DNA of 64,000 nt from an uncultured Bacilli bacterium (GCA_934183165.1 CAKPRZ010000001.1:54820-118819); one strand, 5' to 3'; counted from the first letter of the stretch, positions 27,218 through 57,787 are shown. Program-made: numbers and translations. Notes: a model not told the origin generated them from the sequence alone.

Positions 27218-28720
27218 TCATTTTTCTTTTATTAAACCATTTGGTGTTAAAATATATAAATTATTTATTACCTCACTAATATATTTTCGATCATGAGATA
27301 CACTTATAATTGTTCCTTTATATTCACTTAATACCTTTCTAATAATTGGATTAGATAAAGGACTAACATTTCTTGTAGGTTCATCCAGTATTAAAACATT
27401 GCATTTATCTAATACCAATTTAACAAGGAATAATTTTGCTTTCGTCCCATTACTCAAAGTTTTTATTTTACCTAGCATTTCTTCTTTAGTAAATTTCATG
27501 TTTCCCAAAAAAATTCTTGCTTTAGTAATTGCTTCTTTATTAGCATTTAAAGAAAGAAATTCCAATACATATTCATAATTATTTAGAATATCATCATATG
27601 TTTGAGGCATATAGCCAACTTTAATATCTGCTCTATCTTTTAGCTCATTATAAATTGCTTTTATTAATGTTGATTTCCCAACACCATTTTTGCCAATAAT
27701 ACATAGATGAGTATTACCAACTATATCTAATTTTATATTCTTAGATAAAATTTTATCATGTACTTTTAATTGATCTATATTTAAATTAATTATATTCTTT
27801 GTTTTTGGAACATCTAATTCTTCAAAAAAGAAATTAATACTTTCTTCAACATCTGGCATTTCAGTTAATTCAATACTGTCCATTTTTCTTTCTTGTGATT
27901 TTAAAGAATGCATTTTCTTTTTTAAGACCTTCGCACCATGTGGATCTTTTCTTGAAATCGTATTTTGTTGATATTCAACCTTTTGCATTATTCTTTGTAA
28001 TTTTTCTTGTTGTTTGTTTAATTCTCTTTTTTCAGTTTTTGCAATTTGCATTTGATGTTCTAATCTTCTAATTCTTTGTTCAACATATGTATCATAATCA
28101 ATTTTTAAAAGAGTATGTTTACAATCCTTTTTCTTTTTAACTTGTTCTAAATGTAAAATCATATTTGCAGTATTAGATAATAATGTCTCATCATGAGAAA
28201 CATAAATAATTGGTTTGTCCGTACTATTAATGAAGTCTTCCAACCACTCTAAAGTTTCGATATCTAAATCATTGGTAGGTTCATCTAAAAATAAAATATC
28301 ATATTCATTCAATAATAGTTTTAAAATACTGATTTTTACTTTTTCACCACCAGATAATGTTTTTATTCTCTGCTTCAATATTTCATCACTTAAATGAATT
28401 AAATTTAAATATTTATATAAATTATTAAGATTATTGTAATAATCGATTTCATTTATAAATAAAAAATCATAACCATTCTTATCCAAATCTTTTTCATTTA
28501 TTGATTGTTCTAAATAACCAATTCTATTATTTTTAAAGTTAATACTTCCACTTACTTCTATGTATTCACCCTTTCCTAGAATAGTTTTTAATAAAGTAGA
28601 CTTTCCATTTCCTTCTTCACCAATAATGGCAAGTTTATCTCCACGATTCAATACTAAATTTAAATTTTTAACTAAATATCTACCATTAATAGATATACTT
28701 AAATCTTTTATCTCTAACAT
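27218..28720 (-). CDS. ABC-F family ATPase (two ABC domains, no TMD).
   Basis: Walker A GEEGNGKSTLLK and GKNGVGKSTLIK. Signatures LSGGEKVKISI and LSNGTKAKLFL. A charged ~80-aa inter-domain linker. SD AAAGGAGG. Confidence 0.85.
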   Translation of the reverse strand: MLEIKDLSISINGRYLVKNLNLVLNRGDKLAIIGEEGNGKSTLLKTILGKGEYIEVSGSINFKNNRIGYLEQSINEKDLDKNGYDFLFINEIDYYNNLNNLYKYLNLIHLSDEILKQRIKTLSGGEKVKISILKLLLNEYDILFLDEPTNDLDIETLEWLEDFINSTDKPIIYVSHDETLLSNTANMILHLEQVKKKKDCKHTLLKIDYDTYVEQRIRRLEHQMQIAKTEKRELNKQQEKLQRIMQKVEYQQNTISRKDPHGAKVLKKKMHSLKSQERKMDSIELTEMPDVEESINFFFEELDVPKTKNIINLNIDQLKVHDKILSKNIKLDIVGNTHLCIIGKNGVGKSTLIKAIYNELKDRADIKVGYMPQTYDDILNNYEYVLEFLSLNANKEAITKARIFLGNMKFTKEEMLGKIKTLSNGTKAKLFLVKLVLDKCNVLILDEPTRNVSPLSNPIIRKVLSEYKGTIISVSHDRKYISEVINNLYILTPNGLIKEK

Positions 28721-29197
28721 ATTATGCCTCCTTTTTTGGCATAATCAAAGTTTATACCTAACTTATATCATTGATATTACCATATTATCACCTCTACAAA
28801 TATTAGTTTTCCATCATTTCTACAGATAATTATACCATACATTAATCTATATTTATTTTAAACCACAGATAATCTTAACTTTATTATCATATGAATTTTT
28901 CAAATTTTTTCAATAATGAAATTTATGAAAAATTTATATTTATAAAACATTATTGCAATAGAAAATATTCCAAAGTACAATGACCAAACTATTCATATTT
29001 TATTATTTAAATACCTATAATATTTACTTATTTATTCTTTTTAATAGTTGATCCTATCATCTCACCAAGTAACATTCCTTCAGATATATAATTTTCTTTA
29101 TTTTTTTACTATTAACAACTATAACTATAATTGAAATGCCCATAATCACAAATGGAAATGCCGCTAATATAAAATCTTTCATAATCAATCATCCTTT

Positions 29198-30112
29198 CTA
29201 CTTTTTATTTTTCATATACTCTTTTATCTTACCAAGTCTAATGCAAATTGACGTGAATTTAACTCTTTTTTTGTTTAAAATCTTATCAATTTCATTCGCA
29301 ACTGATTCAAACTTAACATTCATAAAATGTGTAAAAATATATTCAGCGTCATTTATATCTTTAGCATACTTATAACAAAATCCTCTAATAGGTGCTGAAA
29401 TGCTAAATACCCAAATCGGAGATGCAATTATTACCTTTTTATATTCTTTTAGATTAATATCAATTTTTTCTATATCCATATTCCATTTATGCATACCATA
29501 TCTACCACACCACCAAAAGCCACTGGTACCATCAACTTTTTCTTTAGCATTTATTTCAATAATATCAGCACCAATTTTGTTTGCTTTTTCATATGCTACT
29601 TTTCTTGTATATCCCATTCTTGAAAAATACACAACTACACAATTTTTACTTTTACCAATATTATTATATTTTTTAATATCAAAATCAAACTTTTCTTGTT
29701 TATAAAATACATAAGTCATATATCCAGTTATTAACTGTAGTAATCCAATGATAAAATAAAGTATTGATAATATATTAATCGGAAAAATAACAAATTGAAT
29801 AGTAATCCAAAGCATTAAAGTAAATCCAAATATAGTTCCTAATATAATACCAATTTTTTTGTTTTTTATAAGCAGATAAGCCGCTAGCAAATTTGATAAA
29901 CCATTAACAATTAGTAATGAAATTCCTGAAAATATATAATTTTGAAATAATAAATCACTAAAAGGTAAAACATCAAAATAAGGTAACATCTCATTCATTT
30001 CCAATAAATTTCCAGTGGGATCTATAAACATTCCTATACTTCCAAATATGGCACATATTCCTACAAATAAGCACAAAAAGATAAGAACTTTTCTAGTTTT
30101 TTTGTATCTCAT
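29198..30112 (-). CDS. Membrane protein (4 TM) fused to a C-terminal flavodoxin-like domain.
   Basis: Hydrophobic N-terminal half. C-terminal VVVYFSRMGYTRKVAYEKANKIGADIIEI ... IIASPIW resembles flavodoxin_4-type domains. Confidence 0.55.
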   Translation of the reverse strand: MRYKKTRKVLIFLCLFVGICAIFGSIGMFIDPTGNLLEMNEMLPYFDVLPFSDLLFQNYIFSGISLLIVNGLSNLLAAYLLIKNKKIGIILGTIFGFTLMLWITIQFVIFPINILSILYFIIGLLQLITGYMTYVFYKQEKFDFDIKKYNNIGKSKNCVVVYFSRMGYTRKVAYEKANKIGADIIEINAKEKVDGTSGFWWCGRYGMHKWNMDIEKIDINLKEYKKVIIASPIWVFSISAPIRGFCYKYAKDINDAEYIFTHFMNVKFESVANEIDKILNKKRVKFTSICIRLGKIKEYMKNKK

Positions 30113-40253: not shown

Positions 40254-41336
40254 TTATTTATTCTCAGTACAATTAATTGTTTCTGTTTTTACACATTTAC
40301 CATCTTTTTCTTTATATCCACTTGGACATGATTTTGATTTTTTTGTAGTAGATGTTGGAACACACCACATAAAAGCTCCACCCATACCATCTTCTTCAGT
40401 ATACATGTAATCAGATTTGTTTTGGCATTTCCAATTTCCATAATCGTTAGTAGCATGATATTTTTTACTATAATTCAAACATTTGCCATTTTTTAAGGTT
40501 AATCCACTTGAACATGTATTACGTGTAGTTAAATCAGTTGTAATATTTTTGGTACAAGTTTTATTATCACTACTTGGAGTACAATCTTTTGGACATACAT
40601 ACAAATCCTTCCAAATTGCAATAATTGTTACATTGCTATCTATTTTTGTATCTTTTGTTATAGTTGTACCATCACTTAATTTCCATCCACCAAAGATATA
40701 TCCTTTTTTCGTTGGATTTTGAGGCAACTTTATTTTATCACCCTTAGCAATAATAATATTATCAATAATATTTCCACCATCACTGTTAACAGTTATCGTA
40801 ATTTTTTCATCTTTCTGTGATATCCATCTTGGCTTTATAATCATTCCACTGTTGACTACATTATTACCATCAATTACCTCACCACCATCCAAAATCCAAC
40901 CAGCGAACACATATCCGCTCTTTGTAGGCGGAGAAATAAATTGTATTTTTTCTCCATCTATTTCATTTACATCAAGCTTTTTACCATTATCTAAAACAAA
41001 TGTTACATTAACTATAGTTTTTGTCTTATCTAACCATATTGCTTTTAGTTTAATATCGTTAGTTATAATCAAATCATCAGTCGCAATACTACCATCAGTT
41101 AGTTCAAAGCCTCCAAAAACATAACCATCTTTAACTGGATCTTTAGGTAATTTTAACTTACTATTCTCCGCCACCTCAAGATCACTTATACTACTACCGC
41201 CAACAGTATCAAAGCTAACTATATATTTTTTAGAATTATTCTTAAAATTTAAACCTAGCAACAATCCTATTATTAATAGTAAAAATAGAATTAATATCAA
41301 AAGCCATTTTTTCTTTTTTTTCTTACTTTCTTCCAT
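40254..41336 (-). CDS. Membrane-anchored surface protein with three Listeria-Bacteroides-type (Flg_new) repeats and a Cys-rich C-terminal domain.
   Basis: Repeats GYVFGGFELTDGS...IW, GYVFAGWILDGGE...RW, GYIFGGWKLSDGT...IW. N-terminal TM. C-terminal region with ~14 Cys. Confidence 0.7.
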   Translation of the reverse strand: MEESKKKKKKWLLILILFLLLIIGLLLGLNFKNNSKKYIVSFDTVGGSSISDLEVAENSKLKLPKDPVKDGYVFGGFELTDGSIATDDLIITNDIKLKAIWLDKTKTIVNVTFVLDNGKKLDVNEIDGEKIQFISPPTKSGYVFAGWILDGGEVIDGNNVVNSGMIIKPRWISQKDEKITITVNSDGGNIIDNIIIAKGDKIKLPQNPTKKGYIFGGWKLSDGTTITKDTKIDSNVTIIAIWKDLYVCPKDCTPSSDNKTCTKNITTDLTTRNTCSSGLTLKNGKCLNYSKKYHATNDYGNWKCQNKSDYMYTEEDGMGGAFMWCVPTSTTKKSKSCPSGYKEKDGKCVKTETINCTENK

Positions 41337-41347
41337 CGATATACCTC

Positions 41348-41713
41348 CTACCTATTATTATTATTATTGTTATTATTGTTGTTGTTATTTGATGATCCAC
41401 CACTAAATGAACTGCCACTATAACTACCACCAGATGATTCATAATGTGGAAGGATTCTAAATTCTTTGTTACTCATAATAACTCCATCTACACTACTATC
41501 AGTACACCTTGAATTTATAATAACAGCATTTGATGTATCCCTATTTACAACAAGAGAAAGATTTGAAGCTCCTATTACTTGTCCTGTTGGATTATCAACT
41601 AGAAACTTATATATTTGTTCTAAATCAGCCATAGATAATTCATAGTATTTAGTCAAATCAATACATCTTTTTTTTCTTATTAACTCTTCATATGTTTCGG
41701 GATCTTTATTCAT
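41348..41713 (-). CDS. Small protein (121 aa) with a conserved N-domain, a Gly/Ser/aromatic-rich tail and a poly-Asn C-terminus. Paralog of 47470..47868.
   Basis: TYEELIRKKRCIDLTKYYE... N-domain. Tail SSGGSYSGSSFSGGSSNNNNNNNNNNNNNR. Confidence 0.6.
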   Translation of the reverse strand: MNKDPETYEELIRKKRCIDLTKYYELSMADLEQIYKFLVDNPTGQVIGASNLSLVVNRDTSNAVIINSRCTDSSVDGVIMSNKEFRILPHYESSGGSYSGSSFSGGSSNNNNNNNNNNNNR

Positions 41714-44090: not shown

Positions 44091-45212
44091 TTACTTATCT
44101 AGAGTCCAAGTTAGACCCTTATCACGACTAGTAAATGTCAATAACTTGTTTTCATAACCATCTCCTGAACTTTTAGCTTCATAAACAGAATACTGTACTT
44201 TCAAAACATCTTGATAGTAATATGGTATTTTTTCTAAAGTAATAAATTCAACATTTTTATTATCATAATTTATCTTTGATTCATCAAAAGTTAATCCTCC
44301 ATCATTAGTAACAAAAAAATAATTCGAAGTATTCTTATCTAAATATATTTTAGAAGGAACTGTAAAAGCTTGATTTTCATTTAAAAAGACAAATTTATTA
44401 TCACTTTTTACTTCTAATACATCTTTTGATACAGTATAAAAGTTTTTACCATTATCATCACTTTTCACAACATTGACAAGTATTTTCGATGCTAAAGTAC
44501 TATCTACTTTTCCAAATCTTAATATTTTATTATTAAATTTTTTTTCACATAAAACTTCTAGTTGTTCTGGCAGTACAAAATTTTCATTTTGATTGAATCT
44601 CGTAGCATTACTACTATCTTCTATAACATTTTTATCTATTACCTTTTTATTGATATCTTTAATGTACTGGATTTTTTGTTTTCTTTCTACCTTACCACTG
44701 TCGTCATAATAAGTATATTCTACTTCCTCCACATTTTCTTCATTAACAAATGGATCATATCCACCTTTACCAAAGTATCCAAAAACTTTCACCTTATTAC
44801 CCATTAATATTGGTCCATAATAATCATAATAATATACATTTACATGAAGAAATGATTCTACTCTTGCCACATACTTTTTATTATTTAATACTACAATATG
44901 TTCTGGTTGATATAAAAATGCAGATAGTAAAAATACAAAGTAAATAATTGGTAATAATATCAATATAATTAATAAAAATAAAATCATGAACACTATTCTA
45001 GCTTTCTTACTATCTTCGGTAAACTTTAATATCAATTGAATAACTCCAGAAATAAAACTAACTGCGCTAATTATAATGATACCAATGATAATCACATTTC
45101 TAAATCTAATATTAAATAAATATAAAATAAAATTAATTATAATACTAAGCACTATAAAAAAAGTACTATAAGTAAGAATATATCTTTTACTATTTGTTAA
45201 TAATTTTTTCAT
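44091..45212 (-). CDS. Membrane protein (3 TM) with an extracytoplasmic domain carrying BNR/Asp-box-like motifs.
   Basis: N-terminal hydrophobic helices. VTNDGGLTF and SRDKGLTWT resemble SxDxGxTW Asp-boxes. Confidence 0.5.
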   Translation of the reverse strand: MKKLLTNSKRYILTYSTFFIVLSIIINFILYLFNIRFRNVIIIGIIIISAVSFISGVIQLILKFTEDSKKARIVFMILFLLIILILLPIIYFVFLLSAFLYQPEHIVVLNNKKYVARVESFLHVNVYYYDYYGPILMGNKVKVFGYFGKGGYDPFVNEENVEEVEYTYYDDSGKVERKQKIQYIKDINKKVIDKNVIEDSSNATRFNQNENFVLPEQLEVLCEKKFNNKILRFGKVDSTLASKILVNVVKSDDNGKNFYTVSKDVLEVKSDNKFVFLNENQAFTVPSKIYLDKNTSNYFFVTNDGGLTFDESKINYDNKNVEFITLEKIPYYYQDVLKVQYSVYEAKSSGDGYENKLLTFTSRDKGLTWTLDK

Positions 45213-45220
45213 AAATTCAC

Positions 45221-46225
45221 CTACTTTAAGATAATACCTTTTTCGTATTTAGATAAATAGTTTTCTTTTAAAATTAACTTATTGTTTTTTATTACAAATA
45301 CTGAAACATTAGGTATATTAATATCTTTATCTTTATTGGATATTTCAGTTCTATAATAAATTAACTCATCATTTTCTATCTTAAATGTTCCTTTTGATAC
45401 TTCAAGTACTTTTGAATTATAATAAATATTCATACTAGCTTCAAATAGATAATCTTTTTGATTCTTCTTTATTTCTGGTAAGAAATGAACTACTAATTGC
45501 TTGTTTTCTGAATATAAAGTACGAAAAGTATTTAGTGTTCCTAATTTTTCTTTATATTCTTTTAAAAGCATTGTATTACAATAGTTACCCATTCTTATAT
45601 TATAAGAAATAGTATTGTATAGGAATCTATTTTTTACCTTATAATCAATTATTGTTACATCTGCATCTTTATCAAAAAAATATGTAGTATTATTACATGA
45701 TATATGCTCTAAAGAATTAAGATAATTTCTTACTTCACTAATTAGTACACTATTTCCTCTAAAATTCTTATATGAATAGCTATTTTCATTATTTTTCATA
45801 TTAAATGAAAACTTTGGCACCCCTAAACTAATCACTTTATTAGTGTTGTTATTAGTATAATGTATTGGTTTAATTATATATCCAAAAGGTAATAGTTTAA
45901 AAAGAATTATTATTATAATCAATGTAATAGGAAGTAAAATACAAATGTTTTTCTTTAACAATTGTTTTCTTATTTTTTTTCTTTCTTGTTTTAGTACTTC
46001 ACTAACATCTATTTTATTTTTGTTTTCTATCTGTAAAATTTCATATATATCTGTATCGAGTTCATTAGCTAACTTTTTTAACATAGTAACATCTGGAAGA
46101 CTTAATCCTCTTTCCCACTTACTGATAGCTTTATCTGTTATGAACAATCTATTGCCAAGTTCTTGTTGTGTTAGTTTTTTTTCTTTTCTTTTCGACGCTA
46201 TAAATTTTCCAATATTATTATTCAT
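45221..46225 (-). CDS. Membrane-anchored XRE-family HTH regulator (HTH, TM, extracytoplasmic domain).
   Basis: N-terminal KKLTQQELGNRLFITDKAISKWERGLSLPD (XRE HTH). TM LLPITLIIIIILFKLL. ~220-aa C-terminal domain. Confidence 0.7.
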   Translation of the reverse strand: MNNNIGKFIASKRKEKKLTQQELGNRLFITDKAISKWERGLSLPDVTMLKKLANELDTDIYEILQIENKNKIDVSEVLKQERKKIRKQLLKKNICILLPITLIIIIILFKLLPFGYIIKPIHYTNNNTNKVISLGVPKFSFNMKNNENSYSYKNFRGNSVLISEVRNYLNSLEHISCNNTTYFFDKDADVTIIDYKVKNRFLYNTISYNIRMGNYCNTMLLKEYKEKLGTLNTFRTLYSENKQLVVHFLPEIKKNQKDYLFEASMNIYYNSKVLEVSKGTFKIENDELIYYRTEISNKDKDINIPNVSVFVIKNNKLILKENYLSKYEKGIILK

Positions 46226-46382: not shown

Positions 46383-46409
46383 ATAAAAAAGTATGTTTTA
46401 ATCATACTC
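46383..46409 (-). terminator. Rho-independent terminator ending the rSAM operon (agtatg-ttttaat-catact plus T-run on minus).
   Basis: Read from sequence. Lies 20 nt downstream of the stop at 46429. Confidence 0.5.
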
Positions 46410-46428
46410 TTACATTAAAATTATATAT

Positions 46429-47454
46429 TTAAGAATCACTATTATTAATCATGATCCATTCTTGTAAGTATTTAATTGGTTTTCTACAATAACTACAAGA
46501 ATCCTTTGTGACATCTATTAAACCTCCACAATTATGACATTTGATCATATTTATACCATCATGAACCTCAATTGTTCCTTTTTCATGTCTTTCTAAAACA
46601 TATTTATCGTCACAATACTTAGATACAATTTTATTGTTTTTATAATAAACGATTCTTACTTCAGCTGTAACTTCAACAACTAATTTATTATTAACAGTTG
46701 ATTCCTTGAAGTCAATGTAATCAAGTACATCATAATCAATAATATCGTCCTGTTTATAATACTTTTTTCTTACTTCATAATTTAAATTATTAAAGAATAC
46801 TTTTTTATCTATTTCAGTCCTATTCCAAAATTCTATTTGTTTTTGATTTTGAGCATCTTTATATGCTTTTATAGGTCCTAAAATAATATAGGCATCCAAG
46901 ATGTAAAAGAAATAATATAGAATCAAAGATAAAATTCCACCATAAATAAATATTTTAGCTATATCATATTCATTAAATGTTCTAGATGTAGTACTTATAA
47001 AAATATATGTTAAAAATAAACTAACAATTAAATCAATAAATGCTGTAATAATTCTATAACTAGTATTTCTTAAAACCCTATCGTAATGATATTTACTACC
47101 TAAATCTTTATCAGTATAATCTATATTATATTTTGATCTACAATATGGACATCCATCTATAAAATTTTTTACTTTCCCGGGCATGCCACAATTTGGACAA
47201 GAAAAATCTTTATTTTCTTCTTCTTTAGATATAAAAGTATATTCTATTCTAGTATCAAATAATTTTTCTGTTTTTAAAAGTTTATTACCTATATAATAAT
47301 CCTTTTCACATCTTACACCATTTTTTATATCATCATTTACTATTCCATTAGTATTTCTTTCTAATATATTATTACCAACAATATACTTCGTTTTAATATT
47401 TATATTATATTTTTTTAATTTTTTATCATGAAAAGTATCCGAAACTAACGACAC
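46429..47454 (-). CDS. Membrane protein with two zinc-ribbon motifs and two TM helices (341 aa).
   Basis: CPNCG...CPYC (N-terminal region) and CHNCGG...CSYC (C-terminus). Two hydrophobic helices at ~aa 140-200. Confidence 0.6.
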   Translation of the reverse strand: MSLVSDTFHDKKLKKYNINIKTKYIVGNNILERNTNGIVNDDIKNGVRCEKDYYIGNKLLKTEKLFDTRIEYTFISKEEENKDFSCPNCGMPGKVKNFIDGCPYCRSKYNIDYTDKDLGSKYHYDRVLRNTSYRIITAFIDLIVSLFLTYIFISTTSRTFNEYDIAKIFIYGGILSLILYYFFYILDAYIILGPIKAYKDAQNQKQIEFWNRTEIDKKVFFNNLNYEVRKKYYKQDDIIDYDVLDYIDFKESTVNNKLVVEVTAEVRIVYYKNNKIVSKYCDDKYVLERHEKGTIEVHDGINMIKCHNCGGLIDVTKDSCSYCRKPIKYLQEWIMINNSDS

Positions 47455-47469
47455 AAAACCACTTCCTTT

Positions 47470-47868
47470 TTATCTATTATTATTGTTATTAGATGATCCG
47501 CCACTAAAAGAACTACCGCCAAAAAAACTACCACCAAACGATCCACCATAAAATGATGATCCACCTGAATAGGATGATCCTGAATAAGCCTTTGGTACAT
47601 AATGAGGAATAATTCTAAATTCAGTATTACTCACAATAACACCATCAATTTTTGAATCTTTTTTTCTAGCCATAATAACCGACTTAACATCATTATCAAT
47701 GATAAGTGATAGTTTAAGAAAATAACCTACAATTACTCCATTAACATTATTAGCTAGAAAATTATAAACTTCTTTCAAATCGTTATCATTAATTTCATAA
47801 TATTTAGTTAAATCAAAGCATCTTTTATTTCTAATAATTTCTGCATATGTTTGAGCATCATCTTTCAT
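47470..47868 (-). CDS. Small protein (132 aa) with a conserved N-domain, a Gly/Ser/Tyr/Phe repeat tail and poly-Asn. Immediately downstream of, and overlapping, the rSAM gene.
   Basis: TYAEIIRNKRCFDLTKYYE... N-domain. Tail AYSGSSYSGGSSFYGGSFGGSFFGGSSFSGGSSNNNNNR. The start overlaps the rSAM stop by 11 nt. Confidence 0.6.
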   Translation of the reverse strand: MKDDAQTYAEIIRNKRCFDLTKYYEINDNDLKEVYNFLANNVNGVIVGYFLKLSLIIDNDVKSVIMARKKDSKIDGVIVSNTEFRIIPHYVPKAYSGSSYSGGSSFYGGSFGGSFFGGSSFSGGSSNNNNNR

Positions 47869-49609
47869 TTTTTCCCTCCAAATTTAAATAATAAAATTCA
47901 ATATTTTGAAATGGTAAATTTATAGCTTGAATATGATAATAAGCATTATTTTTTTGTTTTAGGTAATGATAATCCCTTAAAGCTGATGTCGTAAAGAAAA
48001 TATTATTAGAATTATCGATAGAATATTGACTATGGTACTCTTTAATTAAATTAGTTATATCATATTCATAGTAATATTCATTATTTGTATTAACACTATC
48101 TAAAACTCCTTTGTAAATTTGATGAGTTACAACATGTCGCTGTTTTGTTCTTTCTTCATCACCATAAGTAACTAAATTCCCACTAAGAATCATAATGTAT
48201 AAAGAATTATTTTCAGGATAATCACATTCTTCTTTAATTAAATTCTTTTTCATACAAATAACAATCTTACTTTGAGGCGTTATGTATATAATTTCTCTTG
48301 ATTTCTTTATTATTTGAGAAGAAAGCGGATATTTGATATCATCAACCTTTAATATAAAAGAATTATCATCATATATATATTTAAGTCTAGGATCACTATC
48401 AATAATGTCTTCTAATAAGGGATATGGACTATTAGTATCTTTTTTTATATATTTAGTAGCGTCTCCTATTCTCATTTTGGTTGCATATTGATATGTGAAT
48501 TCATTAAATTTATCTTCTAAATAGTTTCTATCTTTATACATTTGTTTTTGTAAAAGACAAGTATAACTTTTGTTTTGATTATATGTATTTTTTACAAATG
48601 GGCATCCTGTTTTGCATAAATATAAATAACTACAGTTAGCGCAATCCTCATTAAATGGTAGTTTATTATGATTGATAAAAATCTTCTTATAAGCTTCTTT
48701 TAATATATCATCAACCGTATTTGTATAAATATTTCCATAGTAATAATCAGGATTTTTTTGTCCTCTTACACAAGAATAAATATCTCCATTTCTTTCTAGT
48801 AAAAAGAATTTTTCACCACAATTGTCACAATTAGAGCAATAATCCGGTCCAAATTCATCAAACCATGCACCATTAACTCCACTATCTAAATCAGTCCCAT
48901 CAAATTCTTGATGCATTTTTATGTAGAAATCGACTTGTTCTTCTTCTGCTAAATGATGTAATAATCCATTTGAATTATAATCAAAACCTATCATAAAGTT
49001 AAAATCATTCATATCTAAACATGTATTTTTATTTAAAAATTTTATATCTTCAATAATCTCATCTATGTGTGAATAATGTTCTTTGAATATGGTAGATGAA
49101 ACTTTCTTCTTGTTTGGAATATTTTCTAATAGCTTTATATTATCTAAGATTCTTTCCAATGTCTTAGCTCCACCTTTAGTAACTCTGTATTCATTATGAA
49201 GCGATAAAGGTAAATCAAGACTTCCCGATATTGAAACATTAAATTCTTTAATAGTATCAATATGTTTTTCTATATCAAATAAATTTGTCTTTATATGTGG
49301 ATTACCGATTTTAAAGCCACCTTCATTTATAACTTGTTGATTTTCTTTATAATAATCACTTATAAATTTTATAACGTCATGAAAATCATCTTTACTTAAT
49401 GTTGTAACTTCTCCTCCATGAAGTGAAATATTAAATGGTATAACATTATTCTCTTTAAATTTTGAAATAGCATATTCTAATGTATCTAATGGTTTATATT
49501 TAGTTTTTAATTCTTTTGTATTATCCTCTAAATAGCAATATTTACATCCCATATTACATGCCATTGTTGGAACATACAATAAATGAATATATTTATAATT
49601 TTTTTCCAT
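47858..49609 (-). CDS. Radical SAM / SPASM-domain enzyme with a ~230-aa C-terminal extension (583 aa).
   Basis: CNMGCKYC (Cx3Cx2C) at aa 18-25. SPASM-type clusters CSNCDNCG ... C...CANCSYLYLCKTGCP...C. Confidence 0.85.
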   Translation of the reverse strand: MEKNYKYIHLLYVPTMACNMGCKYCYLEDNTKELKTKYKPLDTLEYAISKFKENNVIPFNISLHGGEVTTLSKDDFHDVIKFISDYYKENQQVINEGGFKIGNPHIKTNLFDIEKHIDTIKEFNVSISGSLDLPLSLHNEYRVTKGGAKTLERILDNIKLLENIPNKKKVSSTIFKEHYSHIDEIIEDIKFLNKNTCLDMNDFNFMIGFDYNSNGLLHHLAEEEQVDFYIKMHQEFDGTDLDSGVNGAWFDEFGPDYCSNCDNCGEKFFLLERNGDIYSCVRGQKNPDYYYGNIYTNTVDDILKEAYKKIFINHNKLPFNEDCANCSYLYLCKTGCPFVKNTYNQNKSYTCLLQKQMYKDRNYLEDKFNEFTYQYATKMRIGDATKYIKKDTNSPYPLLEDIIDSDPRLKYIYDDNSFILKVDDIKYPLSSQIIKKSREIIYITPQSKIVICMKKNLIKEECDYPENNSLYIMILSGNLVTYGDEERTKQRHVVTHQIYKGVLDSVNTNNEYYYEYDITNLIKEYHSQYSIDNSNNIFFTTSALRDYHYLKQKNNAYYHIQAINLPFQNIEFYYLNLEGKNER

Positions 49610-49618
49610 ATTATCCCC

Positions 49619-50611
49619 CTATTTATTGAAATATACAATTGTTGTTGGGCTTTCCTTAAAAGCGTTCTCATTAATATATACATCAAATGGAATTCTTATT
49701 TCATACAAATTATCACATTTTCTAAATGCTGATGACCCGATAGTTTGTAGATTCGAATCAGGACCAATTTCAACTAATTCTAAAGATTTATTCTTATAAA
49801 ATGCACGTCCTCCTATTCTAACTACACTATCAGGAATAGTAATACTTTGTAGTGAAGTGCATCCTTCAAAAGTACTTCCTTTTATTTCTCTAAGACTCTT
49901 AGGTAATTTAATACTACCTAGACGAACATCATTTTTAAATGTTTCACCTCTTATTTCTGTAATTGTATCCGGTAAAGTTACTTCTTTTAAAAATCTCATG
50001 TTAGAAAATGTATTACCTCTTAAACTTACTATATTTTTTCCTTTATAAGTAGCTGGAATTGTTGCAGTTTTAAAATTAGTAATTCCCGATATGTAGAACC
50101 TAACACCATATCCACCTTCCATTTTCTCATACAATATTATTGGTTTATAAAAAATTACTAAAGCAATAAAAACAGAAATCAAATTTATAATTATGAATCT
50201 TAATGAAGTATTATCCTTAGTTATAGATAGTTTACAATTCATAATAATATTAGAAATCTTTTCATTTGGTCTTGACATAATTTCTTTTTTTAAATATTTA
50301 ATCAAATCATATTTTGTATAATAATTAAGAAAAAAAAGTAAAATTATTATTCCTATCACATAAGAATAAGTTGGAAAATGAAAGAAAATCATTGCAATAA
50401 AAACAAATAAAAGTAATGCAAAAATGCTAGCCAATATTGTTTTTCTCTTTAACAATTCCGATGTTATTCCCGGATTATTAATATCCCACTCTATATTTTT
50501 CATTTCCCTTTTAATAAATTCTTCTATTAATTTGTCTTCATCATTCTCATATATTGGATCGACATTATTAGAAATTACTTTGACATTATCATCTAAACTT
50601 TCATTATTCAT
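49619..50611 (-). CDS. Membrane protein with a C-terminal BspA-type leucine-rich-repeat domain (330 aa).
   Basis: Three hydrophobic helices, then LRR_5-like repeats (LKEVTLPDTITEIRGETFKN / LGSIKLPKSLREIKGSTFEGC / LQSITIPDSVVRIGGRAFYKN). Confidence 0.65.
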   Translation of the reverse strand: MNNESLDDNVKVISNNVDPIYENDEDKLIEEFIKREMKNIEWDINNPGITSELLKRKTILASIFALLLFVFIAMIFFHFPTYSYVIGIIILLFFLNYYTKYDLIKYLKKEIMSRPNEKISNIIMNCKLSITKDNTSLRFIIINLISVFIALVIFYKPIILYEKMEGGYGVRFYISGITNFKTATIPATYKGKNIVSLRGNTFSNMRFLKEVTLPDTITEIRGETFKNDVRLGSIKLPKSLREIKGSTFEGCTSLQSITIPDSVVRIGGRAFYKNKSLELVEIGPDSNLQTIGSSAFRKCDNLYEIRIPFDVYINENAFKESPTTIVYFNK

Positions 50612-50726
50612 AACACAATACCCAACTTAATACCTTTCTACTTATATAAACATTATAACATATCAGCAATAGTTTTTCGACAATATATTATGTTTACTAA
50701 CATTTTATTTTTGAATAAAAACAATT

Positions 50727-51656
50727 TCATTTTCTAAAAAGAATTGTTATCCTAGCTAAAATATATGTAAAGGTATCATTTAAATAATTTTCTACATTCG
50801 TATTAAATTCAAGTTGCTCCTTTAAGCTAATAAAAGCATTTTTTATTTTATTGTCATAAAATCCTTTATCAAAATCATTATGTAATGTATCAATATCAAT
50901 ATCAATATTGGAAACCTTCAAGCTAAATATATCTTGATTTGAATATTTTAATAGTAAAGAAACTAAAAATACTTCTTCAAAGATATTAATTGATAAATCA
51001 GTACTATTGTTATATAAGTCTTTTAATAAAGCATTAATATTTAGAGCATTAAATCTTTTACAAAATATATTTTCAAAATTAATATAATTTAAATAGTTAC
51101 TGATAAGTTCTATGCCAATGTAATTACCTTTTTTCTTTAAAGGCATATAATCAAGAGTAATTTTAATGTCTTCTGGATTATTCATCTTATATACTTTAAA
51201 AAAAGCTTCCATTCCATCTTTTAATGTAGAATTATAAAAATAATTATTTACTTTTATAAGATTATGTTTAAAAACAGTTTCATAAAAAAACTTAGTTTTA
51301 CTAAATAATTCACCTATATATTTCAAACTCAATTGATATAAATTAGTGATATTTTCTTTTAAAAGAATTTCTATTATTTCATAAGAAGAATATTTTTTCA
51401 AATAAACTCCCATTGTCCATATCATGGATTTATAAATAACTTCTACTTCTTTCACAGGAATAGTATTTATTTTGTTTTTAAATTGCTCTTTTAATTGGTC
51501 TTTTAAAGCATTAAACATTTTATAATTAATTACCACGAATTCTTCTTTTGATATAATTTGATATTGAAAAAAGCAATTTATTATTTGTTCTAAATAATAA
51601 TTATTCTTTTCAATTTTAGGAATTTTAGGAACAATACTATTCATAAAATTTATCAC
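50727..51656 (-). CDS. Hypothetical cytoplasmic protein (309 aa).
   Basis: Intact ORF. Overlaps the upstream 142-aa gene by 20 nt. Confidence 0.5.
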   Translation of the reverse strand: MINFMNSIVPKIPKIEKNNYYLEQIINCFFQYQIISKEEFVVINYKMFNALKDQLKEQFKNKINTIPVKEVEVIYKSMIWTMGVYLKKYSSYEIIEILLKENITNLYQLSLKYIGELFSKTKFFYETVFKHNLIKVNNYFYNSTLKDGMEAFFKVYKMNNPEDIKITLDYMPLKKKGNYIGIELISNYLNYINFENIFCKRFNALNINALLKDLYNNSTDLSINIFEEVFLVSLLLKYSNQDIFSLKVSNIDIDIDTLHNDFDKGFYDNKIKNAFISLKEQLEFNTNVENYLNDTFTYILARITILFRK

Positions 51657-52065
51657 TTTCTAATTTATTTTTTAATTCATTCAAGCAAAAATCCTGTAGT
51701 ATTTCAATAGATCCTTCACAAACTCCATCAAAACTATTTTTAATATAATCAATAATCTCATCATCGTTTAAAAAGTTATCAAATTCTGATTGATATAAAT
51801 AAAAGGTTTCTATCAAGGCATTGACTATCTCATAATAATTATCACAATCAATAAAAGAAGATTCATAAAAGTTTTGAATCAAATAATTTACATTATTATA
51901 TATTTCAAATCTATTTAATTGCTTTAATAAAAGATTTTTATTTTCAATTAGTTGTATAGCTTGTTTCTTTGTTAATACCAAATTTCTTTCAGAGGTAATA
52001 TCATTAACACTAAGAACTTTTTTTATCTCTAAATCTAGATTCATATTATCAATTGATTTTATCAT
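51637..52065 (-). CDS. Hypothetical acidic cytoplasmic protein (142 aa).
   Basis: SD GAAGGGAGAA upstream. Lies downstream of the sigma gene terminator. Confidence 0.5.
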   Translation of the reverse strand: MIKSIDNMNLDLEIKKVLSVNDITSERNLVLTKKQAIQLIENKNLLLKQLNRFEIYNNVNYLIQNFYESSFIDCDNYYEIVNALIETFYLYQSEFDNFLNDDEIIDYIKNSFDGVCEGSIEILQDFCLNELKNKLESDKFYE

Positions 52066-52157
52066 GTATTTTCTCCCTTCGTTATTCTTAATATAATAAT
52101 TTCATTCAAAATACAAGTCTTGTAAACTAATTAAAATTATGTTAATGTGATAATAAG

Positions 52158-52188
52158 AAAACCAGTAATTTTAACATTTACTGGTTTA
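52158..52188 (-). terminator. Rho-independent terminator of the sigma-factor gene (accagtaa-N9-ttactggt plus T-rich run on minus). It overlaps the stop codon.
   Basis: Read from sequence. Confidence 0.45.
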
Positions 52189-53344
52189 TTTTTATATCAG
52201 TACTTTTTAAATACTTCTTCAATTTTTTTAAAGCTTTTTGTTCAGAATTTCTTACCCATTCGTGAGAACAACCCATTTTTTTAGAAATACTACGATATGA
52301 TAGTTGTTCATATCCATTGAATCCAAAACGATAATTTATTATTTCTCTTTCATTATAGGGAAGTTTGTCTACAATAAAATCTATTTGATCTAAAAAAATA
52401 TTCTTAGTTGCTTCCTCTTCAACATCATCATCGGAAGGTACAATTTCATGATATGATGTATCATCATCCAGTTTAATAGATGAATCAAGCCTGATTGGGG
52501 TAATTGAAATTAAATAAGACTCATAAAATTTATATTCCTTACTAGACAAATTAAACCTAGTCATAATTTCATTTGGTGTTAATTTTCTACAAAGCTCTTG
52601 TTCTAAGTCTTCAACTTGTTTTCTTATACTATTATATTTTAAATATGCCACCATATTTTTCTTTTTTGTTTTTTCATACACAGTGACTCTTCTTAATTCT
52701 CTTACAATACCTGTAGTCGCATATGTAGAAAAACGACAATTAAAATCTTTACTATAACCATCTACAGCTTTTAATAAAACGATATTTCCTTCACCTATCA
52801 AATCTAAAATATCTACTGTACTAATACTAGCATACTTCTTCGCTAAAGATACAACTAATCTTAAATTAGAATTAACCATATTATTAAAGGCATTTTTATA
52901 TACTAAATAATTTTTTACTTGACTTAAAATCTCTTTGTCGTCTAGTTGATTAGCTAAATCACTATCAACATCAAAGTCATTTTTCAAAGTTTCTATATCA
53001 GGCGCTTTGCTGTTTTTCTTACAATAATTCTGGTATTTAACAAGTTGTTCTAAATTTTTTTTATCTAAAGACATATTACTATTTTTATAAAAATCTATTA
53101 ATAATGAAATTACATCTGAATATACTGAGGAATTTACTAAATATAAAAATAATTTTTGTAAATCGATTCCTCTTATTTGAGTAGATCCAACTTTTATATT
53201 TTTTATAAAGGAAATGTTATCAACAAGCCCTAATTCATCAGTCAATTGCTTCTCTTCATCTTCATTCAATAAAGGATAATCTTCAATTTCTTTTAAATAA
53301 AGATGTAATGCATCAATATTTTCATAATCATTATTTTTTGACAT
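52178..53344 (-). CDS. Divergent sigma-70 family sigma factor (388 aa) with a non-canonical region 2.4.
   Basis: Region 1.2-like LHLYLKEIEDYPLL. Region 2 NLRLVVSLAKKY...LIGEGNIVLLKAVDGY...FSTYATTGIVRELRRV. Region 4 LSYRSISKKMGCSHEWVRNSEQKALKKL. Confidence 0.75.
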   Translation of the reverse strand: MSKNNDYENIDALHLYLKEIEDYPLLNEDEEKQLTDELGLVDNISFIKNIKVGSTQIRGIDLQKLFLYLVNSSVYSDVISLLIDFYKNSNMSLDKKNLEQLVKYQNYCKKNSKAPDIETLKNDFDVDSDLANQLDDKEILSQVKNYLVYKNAFNNMVNSNLRLVVSLAKKYASISTVDILDLIGEGNIVLLKAVDGYSKDFNCRFSTYATTGIVRELRRVTVYEKTKKKNMVAYLKYNSIRKQVEDLEQELCRKLTPNEIMTRFNLSSKEYKFYESYLISITPIRLDSSIKLDDDTSYHEIVPSDDDVEEEATKNIFLDQIDFIVDKLPYNEREIINYRFGFNGYEQLSYRSISKKMGCSHEWVRNSEQKALKKLKKYLKSTDIKINQ

Positions 53345-57711: not shown

Positions 57712-57787
57712 TGGTGGAGCATAGCGGGATCGAACCGCTGACCTCCACGGTGCAAACGTGGCGCTCTCCCAGCTGAGCTAATGCCCC
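57712..57787 (-). tRNA. tRNA-Ala (anticodon UGC), CCA-encoded.
   Basis: The minus-strand sequence is GGGGCATTAGCTCAGCTGGGAGAGCGCCACGTTTGCACCGTGGAGGTCAGCGGTTCGATCCCGCTATGCTCCACCA. It has the G3:U70 Ala identity pair, an anticodon loop TT-TGC-AC, and a T-arm GGTTCGATCC. Confidence 0.9.

Follow-up and report, generated by a model that had tools for sequence, protein, structure and literature searches.

The window analyzed here, a 64,000-nucleotide stretch of DNA from an uncultured Bacilli bacterium (GCA_934183165.1 CAKPRZ010000001.1:54820-118819; GC content ~25%; positions counted from its first letter), carries on its minus strand four tightly packed genes. The second and third of these, which encode a radical S-adenosylmethionine (SAM)/SPASM enzyme and a small protein that ends in a run of asparagine (Asn) residues, are the subject of this analysis (Table 1). 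A contig from a Hadza gut metagenome has a sequence identical to that of the window. An earlier reading made from the sequence alone (the sequence-only reading) had described the four packed genes as an operon and as a candidate peptide-modification system; its account of the layout is correct, with 9 nt between genes 1 and 2, genes 2 and 3 overlapping by 11 nt, and 15 nt between genes 3 and 4. The four-gene cassette recurs in many genomes, each with other flanking genes, and the gene cluster is therefore no chance arrangement: the cassette is a conserved unit.

Table 1. Positions of the four genes, their domains and motifs, and neighboring features in the window
Feature	Position	Strand	Description
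Gene 1	49619-50611	minus	330 aa; membrane protein with C-terminal BspA-type leucine-rich repeat (LRR) domain (LRR_5, E 2.6e-28)
Gene 2	47858-49609	minus	583 aa; radical SAM/SPASM enzyme with fused C-terminal domain
CX3CX2C motif	49535-49558	minus	C18, C22, and C25 of enzyme; binds radical SAM [4Fe-4S] cluster
SPASM region	48557-48838	minus	Enzyme residues 258-351; eight invariant Cys
β-sandwich domain	47876-48427	minus	Enzyme residues ~395-578; ~190 residues
Gene 3	47470-47868	minus	132 aa; Asn-tailed protein
N-domain of gene 3	47593-47868	minus	Residues 1-92; ends ...IIPHY
Gly/Ser/aromatic linker	47491-47592	minus	Residues 93-126; imperfect tandem repeats of 15 and 18 nt
Tail end, Asn5-Arg	47473-47490	minus	Directly after Ser126; fits signature Ser/Thr/Cys-(Asn)n-X
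Gene 4	46429-47454	minus	341 aa; Zn-ribbon membrane protein
Second copy of tailed protein	41348-41713	minus	121 aa; ends ...GGSS-N12-R
Flg_new-repeat protein	40254-41336	minus	360 aa; N-terminal membrane anchor
Promoter-like site	50652-50680	minus	TCGAAA-17-TATAAT, TG upstream; 10/12 consensus matches; within 115-nt gap 5' of gene 1
Terminator-like hairpin and U run	46384-46411	minus	After gene 4; 9-bp A/U-rich stem; weak
Upstream genes	50727-53344	minus	Sigma-70-family gene (388 aa), DUF6323 gene, DUF6179 gene
Downstream genes	44091-46225	minus	HTH_3 (XRE-type) protein with hydrophobic segment, then 373-aa membrane protein with weak BNR/Asp-box match
tRNA gene	57715-57787	minus	Sole Rfam match in window

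The two outer genes encode the membrane proteins that the sequence-only reading had outlined. Gene 1, read there as a three-transmembrane protein with BspA-type LRRs, has three hydrophobic segments, near residues 53-97 and 134-162, ahead of an LRR domain that is probably extracellular; its homologs lie immediately 5' of the enzyme gene in 39 loci. Gene 4, read as a membrane protein with two zinc ribbons, runs in the order Zn ribbon, two hydrophobic segments, soluble domain, second Zn ribbon, with the CxxC...CxxC pairs of the ribbons (CPNC...CPYC and CHNC...CSYC) flanking the hydrophobic segments. Gene 4 homologs occur in 29 loci, with a mean column identity of 66%. The gene 4 protein has no family-level match in Pfam, NCBIfam, PADLOC, or PHROGs, and a search of the PDB with its profile returned nothing significant.

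The enzyme and its asparagine-tailed partner

Three lines of evidence define the class of the enzyme: conserved cysteines, sequence models, and predicted fold. In an alignment of 12 family sequences, reaching down to 28% identity, the three cysteines of the CX3CX2C motif are invariant, as are eight in the SPASM region, spaced C258, C264-x10-G275-x4-C280, C323-x2-C326-x5-C332-x3-C336, and C351, which by their number should suffice for two auxiliary [4Fe-4S] clusters. All 11 invariant cysteines are assigned as cluster ligands, and no other cysteine is conserved. The enzyme exceeds the cut-offs of Pfam Radical_SAM PF04055 (43.7 vs. 29.5 bits), Pfam SPASM PF13186 (24.9 vs. 21.5 bits), and TIGR04085 (42.3 vs. 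27 bits), and reaches no curated family-level cut-off in NCBIfam. Its best sub-threshold models there are anSME, DynA (87 bits vs. a cut-off of 450), a methanogen peptide maturase, PapB, DarW/DarE, HxsB, AmcB, YhhB, and GrrM, and proteobacterial and phage relatives show the same sub-threshold picture. A sequence search of the PDB with the enzyme returned nothing significant. An AlphaFold2 model (mean predicted local distance difference test score 85) superposes on radical SAM structures, with anSMEcpe as the best solved match (E 8e-13), followed by CteB, SuiB, and ChlB, all four of which modify peptides or proteins. On this evidence the enzyme is a genuine member of the radical SAM/SPASM class, and its type is that of the peptide and protein maturases. 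The sequence-only reading had named both the class, from the CX3CX2C motif and an auxiliary Cys cluster, and the maturase affinity, which the nearest sequence models and folds (anSME, CteB, SuiB, DynA) support; in the profile search that it suggested, SPASM scores above its cut-off, and anSME and GrrM score far below theirs.

The C-terminal extension that the sequence-only reading had left unexplained is real, spans residues ~365-583, and contains a β-sandwich domain conserved from phage to Firmicute members. Thirteen residues of the domain, mostly polar, are invariant (N468, Y482, G483, K489, H492, T541, H548, N555, Y558, H559, Q561, N564, and P566), and the family motif reads YGDExRTKQxH ... 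TTSxLRDYHY ... NAYYHIQAxNLPF. The domain has no close solved relative and no characterized one.

The gene 3 protein has the form given in the sequence-only reading, a Gly/Ser/aromatic tail followed by NNNNNR: its terminus is ...AYSGSSYSGGSSFYGGSFGGSFFGGSSFSGGSS-NNNNN-R, with the final stretch GGSSFSGGSS-NNNNN-R. Ahead of the tail stands an N-domain of ~92 aa, conserved across 42 gut-Firmicute loci, so that this precursor-like protein is without a short leader. The N-domain profile gave nothing significant against the PDB; a homology search with the N-domain only, limited by its word index, returned just two near-identical proteins; and the whole tailed protein has no family-level match in Pfam, NCBIfam, PADLOC, or PHROGs. 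The linker and the Asn run differ in their conservation. Orthologous linkers are ~10-15 residues long and poor in aromatics, and orthologs whose enzymes are 75-79% identical to that of the window have tails such as ...PSSSSGYSGGSSS-N15-R; in a strain of the same species, linker length and N5-R ending are identical to those of the window. The Gly/Ser/aromatic linker is, on the sequences compared, a local repeat expansion unconserved in orthologs.

The sequence-only reading had taken the (Y/F)-x-(G/S) units of this linker for the substrate of a triceptide/GRRM-like maturase that cross-links aromatic residues. The window tail is indeed rich in Tyr and Phe, and the sub-threshold matches of the family include AmcB (57-80 bits), GrrM (51-63 bits), YhhB, and XyeB. 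However, the repeat is absent from most orthologs, many orthologous tails contain a single aromatic residue or none, the last ~25 residues of betaproteobacterial tails are free of aromatics, and the GrrM score is far under its cut-off. Aromatic cross-linking would also leave unexplained the element that all tails share, the Asn run. We consider that reading highly improbable; the conserved element is not the (Y/F)-x-(G/S) repeat but Ser/Thr/Cys-(Asn)n-X.

A second copy of the tailed protein lies ~6 kb from the operon, shares 49% identity with the first over the N-domain (E 1e-31), and is probably a second substrate of the same enzyme. The gene directly after it encodes an anchored protein with Flg_new repeats. 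Each tailed protein of the window thus shares its gene cluster with an anchored repeat protein, probably at the cell surface.

Strict genomic pairing of the enzyme with Asn-run proteins

The census of the family used our own six-frame calls as open reading frames (ORFs) in fetched loci, took in up to 80 loci per scan, and compared ~90 related loci overall; 79 loci, from a scan of one genome per species, were sorted by identity. Close relatives of the enzyme (at least 75% identity over full length) number in the thousands in gut metagenomes. Among 1.84 billion cluster representatives, ~10 full-length clusters with the C-terminal domain were found at 30-50% identity, and beyond these only generic anSME-like proteins. 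Relatives were found in at least 342 species genomes of the one-genome-per-species scan; the family extends over gut Firmicutes, cable bacteria, Pseudoalteromonas, Archangium, and Campylobacter phages. Identity to the window enzyme is 61-84% in metagenome-assembled genomes of gut 'Bacilli/Clostridia/Tenericutes', 54-58% in Lachnospiraceae and Acutalibacteraceae, 50% in Slackia, 35-45% in many Beta-, Gamma-, and Deltaproteobacteria and Archangium, and 30-34% in Campylobacter jejuni 414, a Helicobacter metagenome-assembled genome, and one high-GC record labeled Staphylococcus. Plasmid carriage was seen in one Campylobacter record only.

A protein terminated by an Asn run, with the signature Ser/Thr/Cys-(Asn)n-X, is encoded beside the enzyme gene in 78 of 84 loci, in Firmicutes, Beta-, Gamma-, and Deltaproteobacteria, Myxococcota, Actinobacteria-like, and Campylobacterota genomes; the remaining six loci are cut by contig ends, are frameshifted, or fall outside the family. 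The converse also holds. A scan of 83 loci (846 kb) for Asn-run ORFs, defined as having at least four Asn in the last eight residues, returned 71, of which 70 lie on the same strand as, and no more than 1.5 kb from, the enzyme gene. The single Asn-run ORF not adjoining an enzyme gene is the second copy in the window. The co-occurrence analysis that the sequence-only reading had suggested thus gives a strongly positive answer: the tailed protein is the conserved genomic partner of the enzyme.

The signature was compared position by position across the 78 loci. Ser precedes the run in 66 loci, Thr in six, Cys in two, and another residue in four. The run is mostly 10-20 Asn long, with a range from 3 to ~30 (5 in the window, 3-6 in phages). 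The run is followed by Gly in 35 loci, by Arg in 22, by Ser in six, and by another residue or residues in four, and in 11 the protein ends in Asn itself. Asn codons are an AAT/AAC mix, and runs of 14-18 are maintained in genomes of 64-70% GC. We conclude from the codon usage and from the residue before the run that the Asn run is under selection at the protein level. That the run is instead a functionless compositional or slippage artifact of AT-rich DNA, as the ~25% GC of the window and the AT-rich codons of Asn could suggest, has a negligible chance: the same tails, with mixed AAC/AAT codons, stand in genomes of 58-70% GC, and they stand almost exclusively beside the family enzyme. Against microsatellite slippage in particular stand the mixed codons and the same-species relative with an identical N5-R tail. 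No sign of a diversity-generating retroelement was found, the only repeats within 13 kb being the two tailed-protein gene copies; a search for reverse-transcriptase families on the called genes of annotated loci found none, the ORFs of other loci not having been scanned for that domain.

Clustering of all ORFs in the loci resolves four architectures. In architecture A, that of gut Firmicutes, the genes encode LRR membrane protein, enzyme, tailed protein, and Zn-ribbon membrane protein. In architecture B, mainly in Betaproteobacteria, they encode a ~155-aa two-segment membrane protein, enzyme, and tailed protein. In architecture C, in Gammaproteobacteria and cable bacteria, they encode tailed protein, a ~270-aa membrane protein, and enzyme, or have the enzyme first; the type C tail reads S-N11-G-NNN-G. 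In architecture D, that of phages and prophages, the enzyme gene lies within a tail-fiber module. The LRR and Zn-ribbon proteins are membrane partners of the gut-Firmicute form only, in a profile comparison no two of the LRR, Zn-ribbon, ~155-aa, and ~270-aa proteins, the partners in types A, B, and C, showed homology, and the proteobacterial partners matched no Pfam family and no curated model. The N-domains of the tailed proteins, compared with tails removed, are homologous between types B and C (98% probability), weakly similar between Firmicutes and Gammaproteobacteria (23%, E 9e-4), and not significantly similar between Firmicutes and Betaproteobacteria. A first profile comparison, which gave cross-lineage N-domain homology at 97-99% probability, was inflated by the Asn tails and is rejected.

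Several individual loci merit description. Type B tailed proteins (L056, 6807-7241; L047, 6810-7253) have a conserved hydrophobic stretch, ...LVMLGTAGLLLTMPG..., then a basic patch, then a Ser-Asn run, a layout that recalls C-terminal sorting signals, yet an N-terminal signal peptide is absent. In locus L008 (3969-5408), on a high-GC betaproteobacterial contig, the three-gene module adjoins PIN-domain and Phd/YefM toxin-antitoxin genes, which hints that some copies reside in mobile or defense-island-like regions. The record labeled Staphylococcus chromogenes M79.2 (JAUDUO010000003.1) has ~59% GC and actinobacterial-looking proteins, and the contig is probably contamination or mislabeled; it keeps the full module, namely a membrane protein, a 77-aa protein ending ...GGS-N13-G, the enzyme, and another membrane protein. 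In Clostridium sp. CAG:465 (FR891236.1, 4200-6256) the enzyme is split into two ORFs and the tailed ORF stops just 5' of the Asn run, reflecting either a pseudogenized cassette or assembly errors at the low-complexity stretch.

The phage members place the same pairing within a virion module. The module of Campylobacter phage CAM-P21 (MW462221; enzyme gene at 28053-29810) runs from baseplate genes through tail fiber, 211-aa protein, enzyme, tail assembly chaperone, and second fiber-like protein to sheath and tube; the tail fiber (phrog_1162) ends ...SGSTNNNNY, and the enzyme is a member of phrog_1802. C. jejuni 414 (...GSSNNNNY) and a Helicobacter prophage (...SYSCNNNNGG) share this arrangement. 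In a Mu-like phage, a protein ending ...GSGPNNNF is encoded two genes 5' of the enzyme, before a ~205-aa relative of the 211-aa protein of CAM-P21, which itself has no family-level match in Pfam, NCBIfam, PADLOC, or PHROGs. Among six IMG/VR loci of the family, three have the arrangement; in two, a large fiber-like protein is followed by a small one whose terminus is ...FSNNNNNNLAGNV or ...RNNNGNNNNSCSGGW; and in the last, no run is clear. No Asn-run ORF is present in 13 viral loci whose radical SAM genes fall outside the family.

These contexts bear on a different reading of the system, namely that the enzyme is a viperin-like enzyme acting on a small molecule or nucleotide in a phage-defense or counter-defense module, in which the tailed protein would regulate and the membrane protein would be the effector. 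The patchy distribution (single C. jejuni strains, prophages, the locus beside PIN/Phd toxin-antitoxin genes), the constant presence of a membrane partner, and weak viperin-model matches over the cluster-binding N-terminus would fit such a module. However, PADLOC-DB 2.0 gives only a 70-residue pVip match over the cluster motif (E 1.3e-6) and one match at chance level; a full SPASM domain with two auxiliary clusters is typical of peptide/protein maturases, and every close structural match belongs to that class; the phage gene sits in the tail-fiber module, not among early or anti-defense genes; and the gut-Firmicute copies are 65-84% identical across many species and lie among housekeeping genes. 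We judge the defense reading improbable.

Around the operon, the promoter-like site 5' of gene 1 is only a candidate, because the number of such sites equals that expected from shuffled sequence. The terminator that the sequence-only reading placed after gene 4 is present as a hairpin with a U run, but it is weak (46387-46411; free energy -8.6 kcal/mol, z -1.8, 10 of 200 shuffles folding equally well), and a stricter terminator scan reported nothing after gene 4. The DUF6323 and DUF6179 genes listed upstream also stand 5' of the LRR gene in a same-species relative whose locus (L110) ends before the sigma-factor gene; more distant genomes are without this arrangement of DUF6323, DUF6179, and sigma-factor genes, which therefore probably lies outside the system.

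Proposed function of the system

We propose, with a probability of about 0.58, that the window operon is the gut-Firmicute form of a widespread, previously undescribed system in which a radical SAM/SPASM enzyme with a C-terminal β-sandwich, the core enzyme of the family, is paired with a Ser/Thr/Cys-(Asn)n-X protein that acts as its substrate. Both features of the proposed family, the conserved β-sandwich and the adjacent signature protein, are found in the window and in 78 of 84 loci. The tail is the likely substrate because nothing else is shared by all partners: neither N-domains nor membrane partners are conserved between lineages, and phage fibers have only the tail in common. Within the tail, the comparison of orthologs makes the Asn run, and not the Gly/Ser/aromatic repeat, the likely target.

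Several points weigh against this proposal. Co-occurrence in genomes is by itself no proof of an enzyme-substrate relation. Variation in run length as wide as that described above would not be expected of a single, defined site of reaction, and the last residue also differs among loci (G, R, S, H, Y, F, or none). All four architectures lack a conserved protease, exporter, or transporter; the system is therefore not a classical pathway for ribosomally synthesized and post-translationally modified peptides (RiPPs). The membrane partners of different lineages are unrelated, and downstream biology may therefore differ between lineages. Finally, the role that we propose for the β-sandwich, docking of the tail or of the substrate protein, is a guess, because the domain has no characterized relative.

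The variable length and unfixed last residue would be easier to reconcile with a role in binding or assembly than with an exact site of reaction. On that account the Asn run would be a docking handle or a physical element, such as a polar zipper for self-association, and the enzyme would act elsewhere, be it at another site of the tailed protein, on its membrane partner, or on some third protein; the dedicated extra domain of the enzyme could read such a handle. Against this are the Ser, Thr, or Cys directly before the run in 74 of 78 loci and the fact that the tail alone is shared by all partners. We regard a pure docking or assembly role as rather unlikely, and we retain modification of the tail as the preferred reading.

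If the tail is the substrate, the following sequence of events can be envisaged. The enzyme would act in the cytoplasm. It would dock the substrate protein, probably with the β-sandwich and its polar, invariant face, and would thread the C-terminal tail into the barrel. The nearest families lead us to expect that hydrogen is then removed from an α-carbon or a side-chain carbon of the Ser-Asn stretch: the 5'-deoxyadenosyl radical would take hydrogen from Asn Cβ or Cα, or from the preceding Ser, Thr, or Cys, possibly repeatedly along the run, and the two auxiliary clusters would handle the electron. The product would be a cross-linked, oxidized, or otherwise altered tail. The modified protein would then work with the lineage-specific membrane protein (in the window, the LRR and Zn-ribbon proteins), and in phages it would be the tip of the tail fiber. 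A bolder version, which we put forward tentatively, is that the enzyme moves along the homopolymeric Asn tract and builds a new structure, for example cross-linked or stereo-inverted poly-Asn, that is used by phage fiber tips and by membrane-associated systems of bacteria across phyla.

SPASM radical SAM enzymes are a rich source of new peptide chemistry, and processive conversion of poly-Asn, if true, would add a class of protein modification that is new, as is the logic of its substrate. To judge by the phage link, some tail fibers may carry a tip modification made by a radical SAM enzyme, which would matter for receptor binding and host range. Within the uncultured, small-genome gut lineage of the window, the cassette is 65-84% identical across species, a level of conservation that points to an important role in the cell envelope. 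The clean pairing lends itself to a test by co-expression of the two genes.

Comparison with known systems

The closest known system is anSME (TIGR03942; PDB 4K36-4K39), which is the best match of the enzyme by both sequence model and fold. Like the enzyme, anSME has no N-terminal RiPP recognition domain and has a barrel that starts near residue 10 and a full eight-Cys SPASM domain; its substrate, as that of the enzyme would be, is a folded protein and not a short peptide. anSME oxidizes Ser or Cys, and the family has Ser or Cys at the conserved position before the Asn run. However, the enzyme scores 93.7 bits against the TIGR03942 cut-off of 349.45; it carries the extra ~190-residue β-sandwich; no sulfatase gene is found in the cassette of any locus; and the partner tails are without the (C/S)-x-(P/A)-x-R motif. 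In the anSMEcpe structure an Asp after a second-cluster Cys acts as base, whereas the family enzyme has C280-V-R at this place.

DynA and DarE, the dynobactin and darobactin maturases, and the thioether-forming PapB and QhpD are likewise SPASM maturases that abstract hydrogen from side-chain carbons, and they stand second to sixth among the sub-threshold models of the enzyme. The bonds formed run from Trp to an Asn β-carbon in the case of DynA, and from Cys to Asp or Glu carbons in that of PapB and QhpD. Scores for this group are 60-87 bits vs. cut-offs of 340-650 (PapB, 62.7 vs. 340), and the partners described here are without the required Trp or Cys, the short leader-core peptide, and the exporter or protease. 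Sactipeptide and ranthipeptide maturases differ from the family in similar respects: the window tail has no Cys, a Cys precedes the run in only two of 78 loci, and the enzyme has no N-terminal RiPP recognition element, its radical SAM motif beginning at residue 18. The sequence-only reading had matched the operon to no known RiPP family, and the comparison agrees, with the features of sactipeptides and ranthipeptides, of triceptides, and of classical RiPPs all lacking.

Systems that target repeats, namely GrrM/OscB (Gly-rich repeat), HxsB/HxsC (His-Xaa-Ser), CXXX-repeat, and Cys-every-fifth, resemble the family in having a SPASM enzyme beside a substrate with a C-terminal, low-complexity, multi-site region. 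The family differs in having an Asn homopolymer at the very C-terminus, in having another extra domain, and in scoring far under all of their cut-offs: on GrrM (TIGR04261) the window enzyme scores 51.4 bits vs. 310, over residues 14-196 (the radical SAM core) only, and proteobacterial and phage members score 54.7-63 bits. Epimerases of the PoyD (proteusin) and YydG/EpeE types modify many residues along one peptide, including Asn in polytheonamide, and a long Asn run would suit such iterative, multi-residue modification; EpeE is among the weaker structural matches of the enzyme. However, these epimerases use a conserved non-cluster Cys as hydrogen donor, and the absence of a spare conserved Cys from the family alignment argues against an epimerase of this type.

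A full-length match of the enzyme is phrog_1802 of phages ('radical SAM domain-containing protein'), which the window enzyme matches over residues 13-576, C-terminal domain included (E 1.4e-39); phrog_1802, however, is an unannotated sequence cluster with no function, substrate, tail-fiber link, or Asn-tail link on record. Pfam, NCBIfam (June 2026), and PADLOC contain no model for the pairing of enzyme and Asn tail, and a literature search on radical SAM/SPASM proteins with poly-asparagine or phage tail fibers found no paper on the pairing; within these searches, no report of a homopolymeric Asn tract in the role of conserved partner came to light. A paper on radical SAM genes of virulent Campylobacter phages concerns genes unrelated to the family. 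A SPASM maturase encoded beside its substrate is known in kind; what appears to be new is the type of substrate, the extra domain, and the presence in phage tail-fiber modules.

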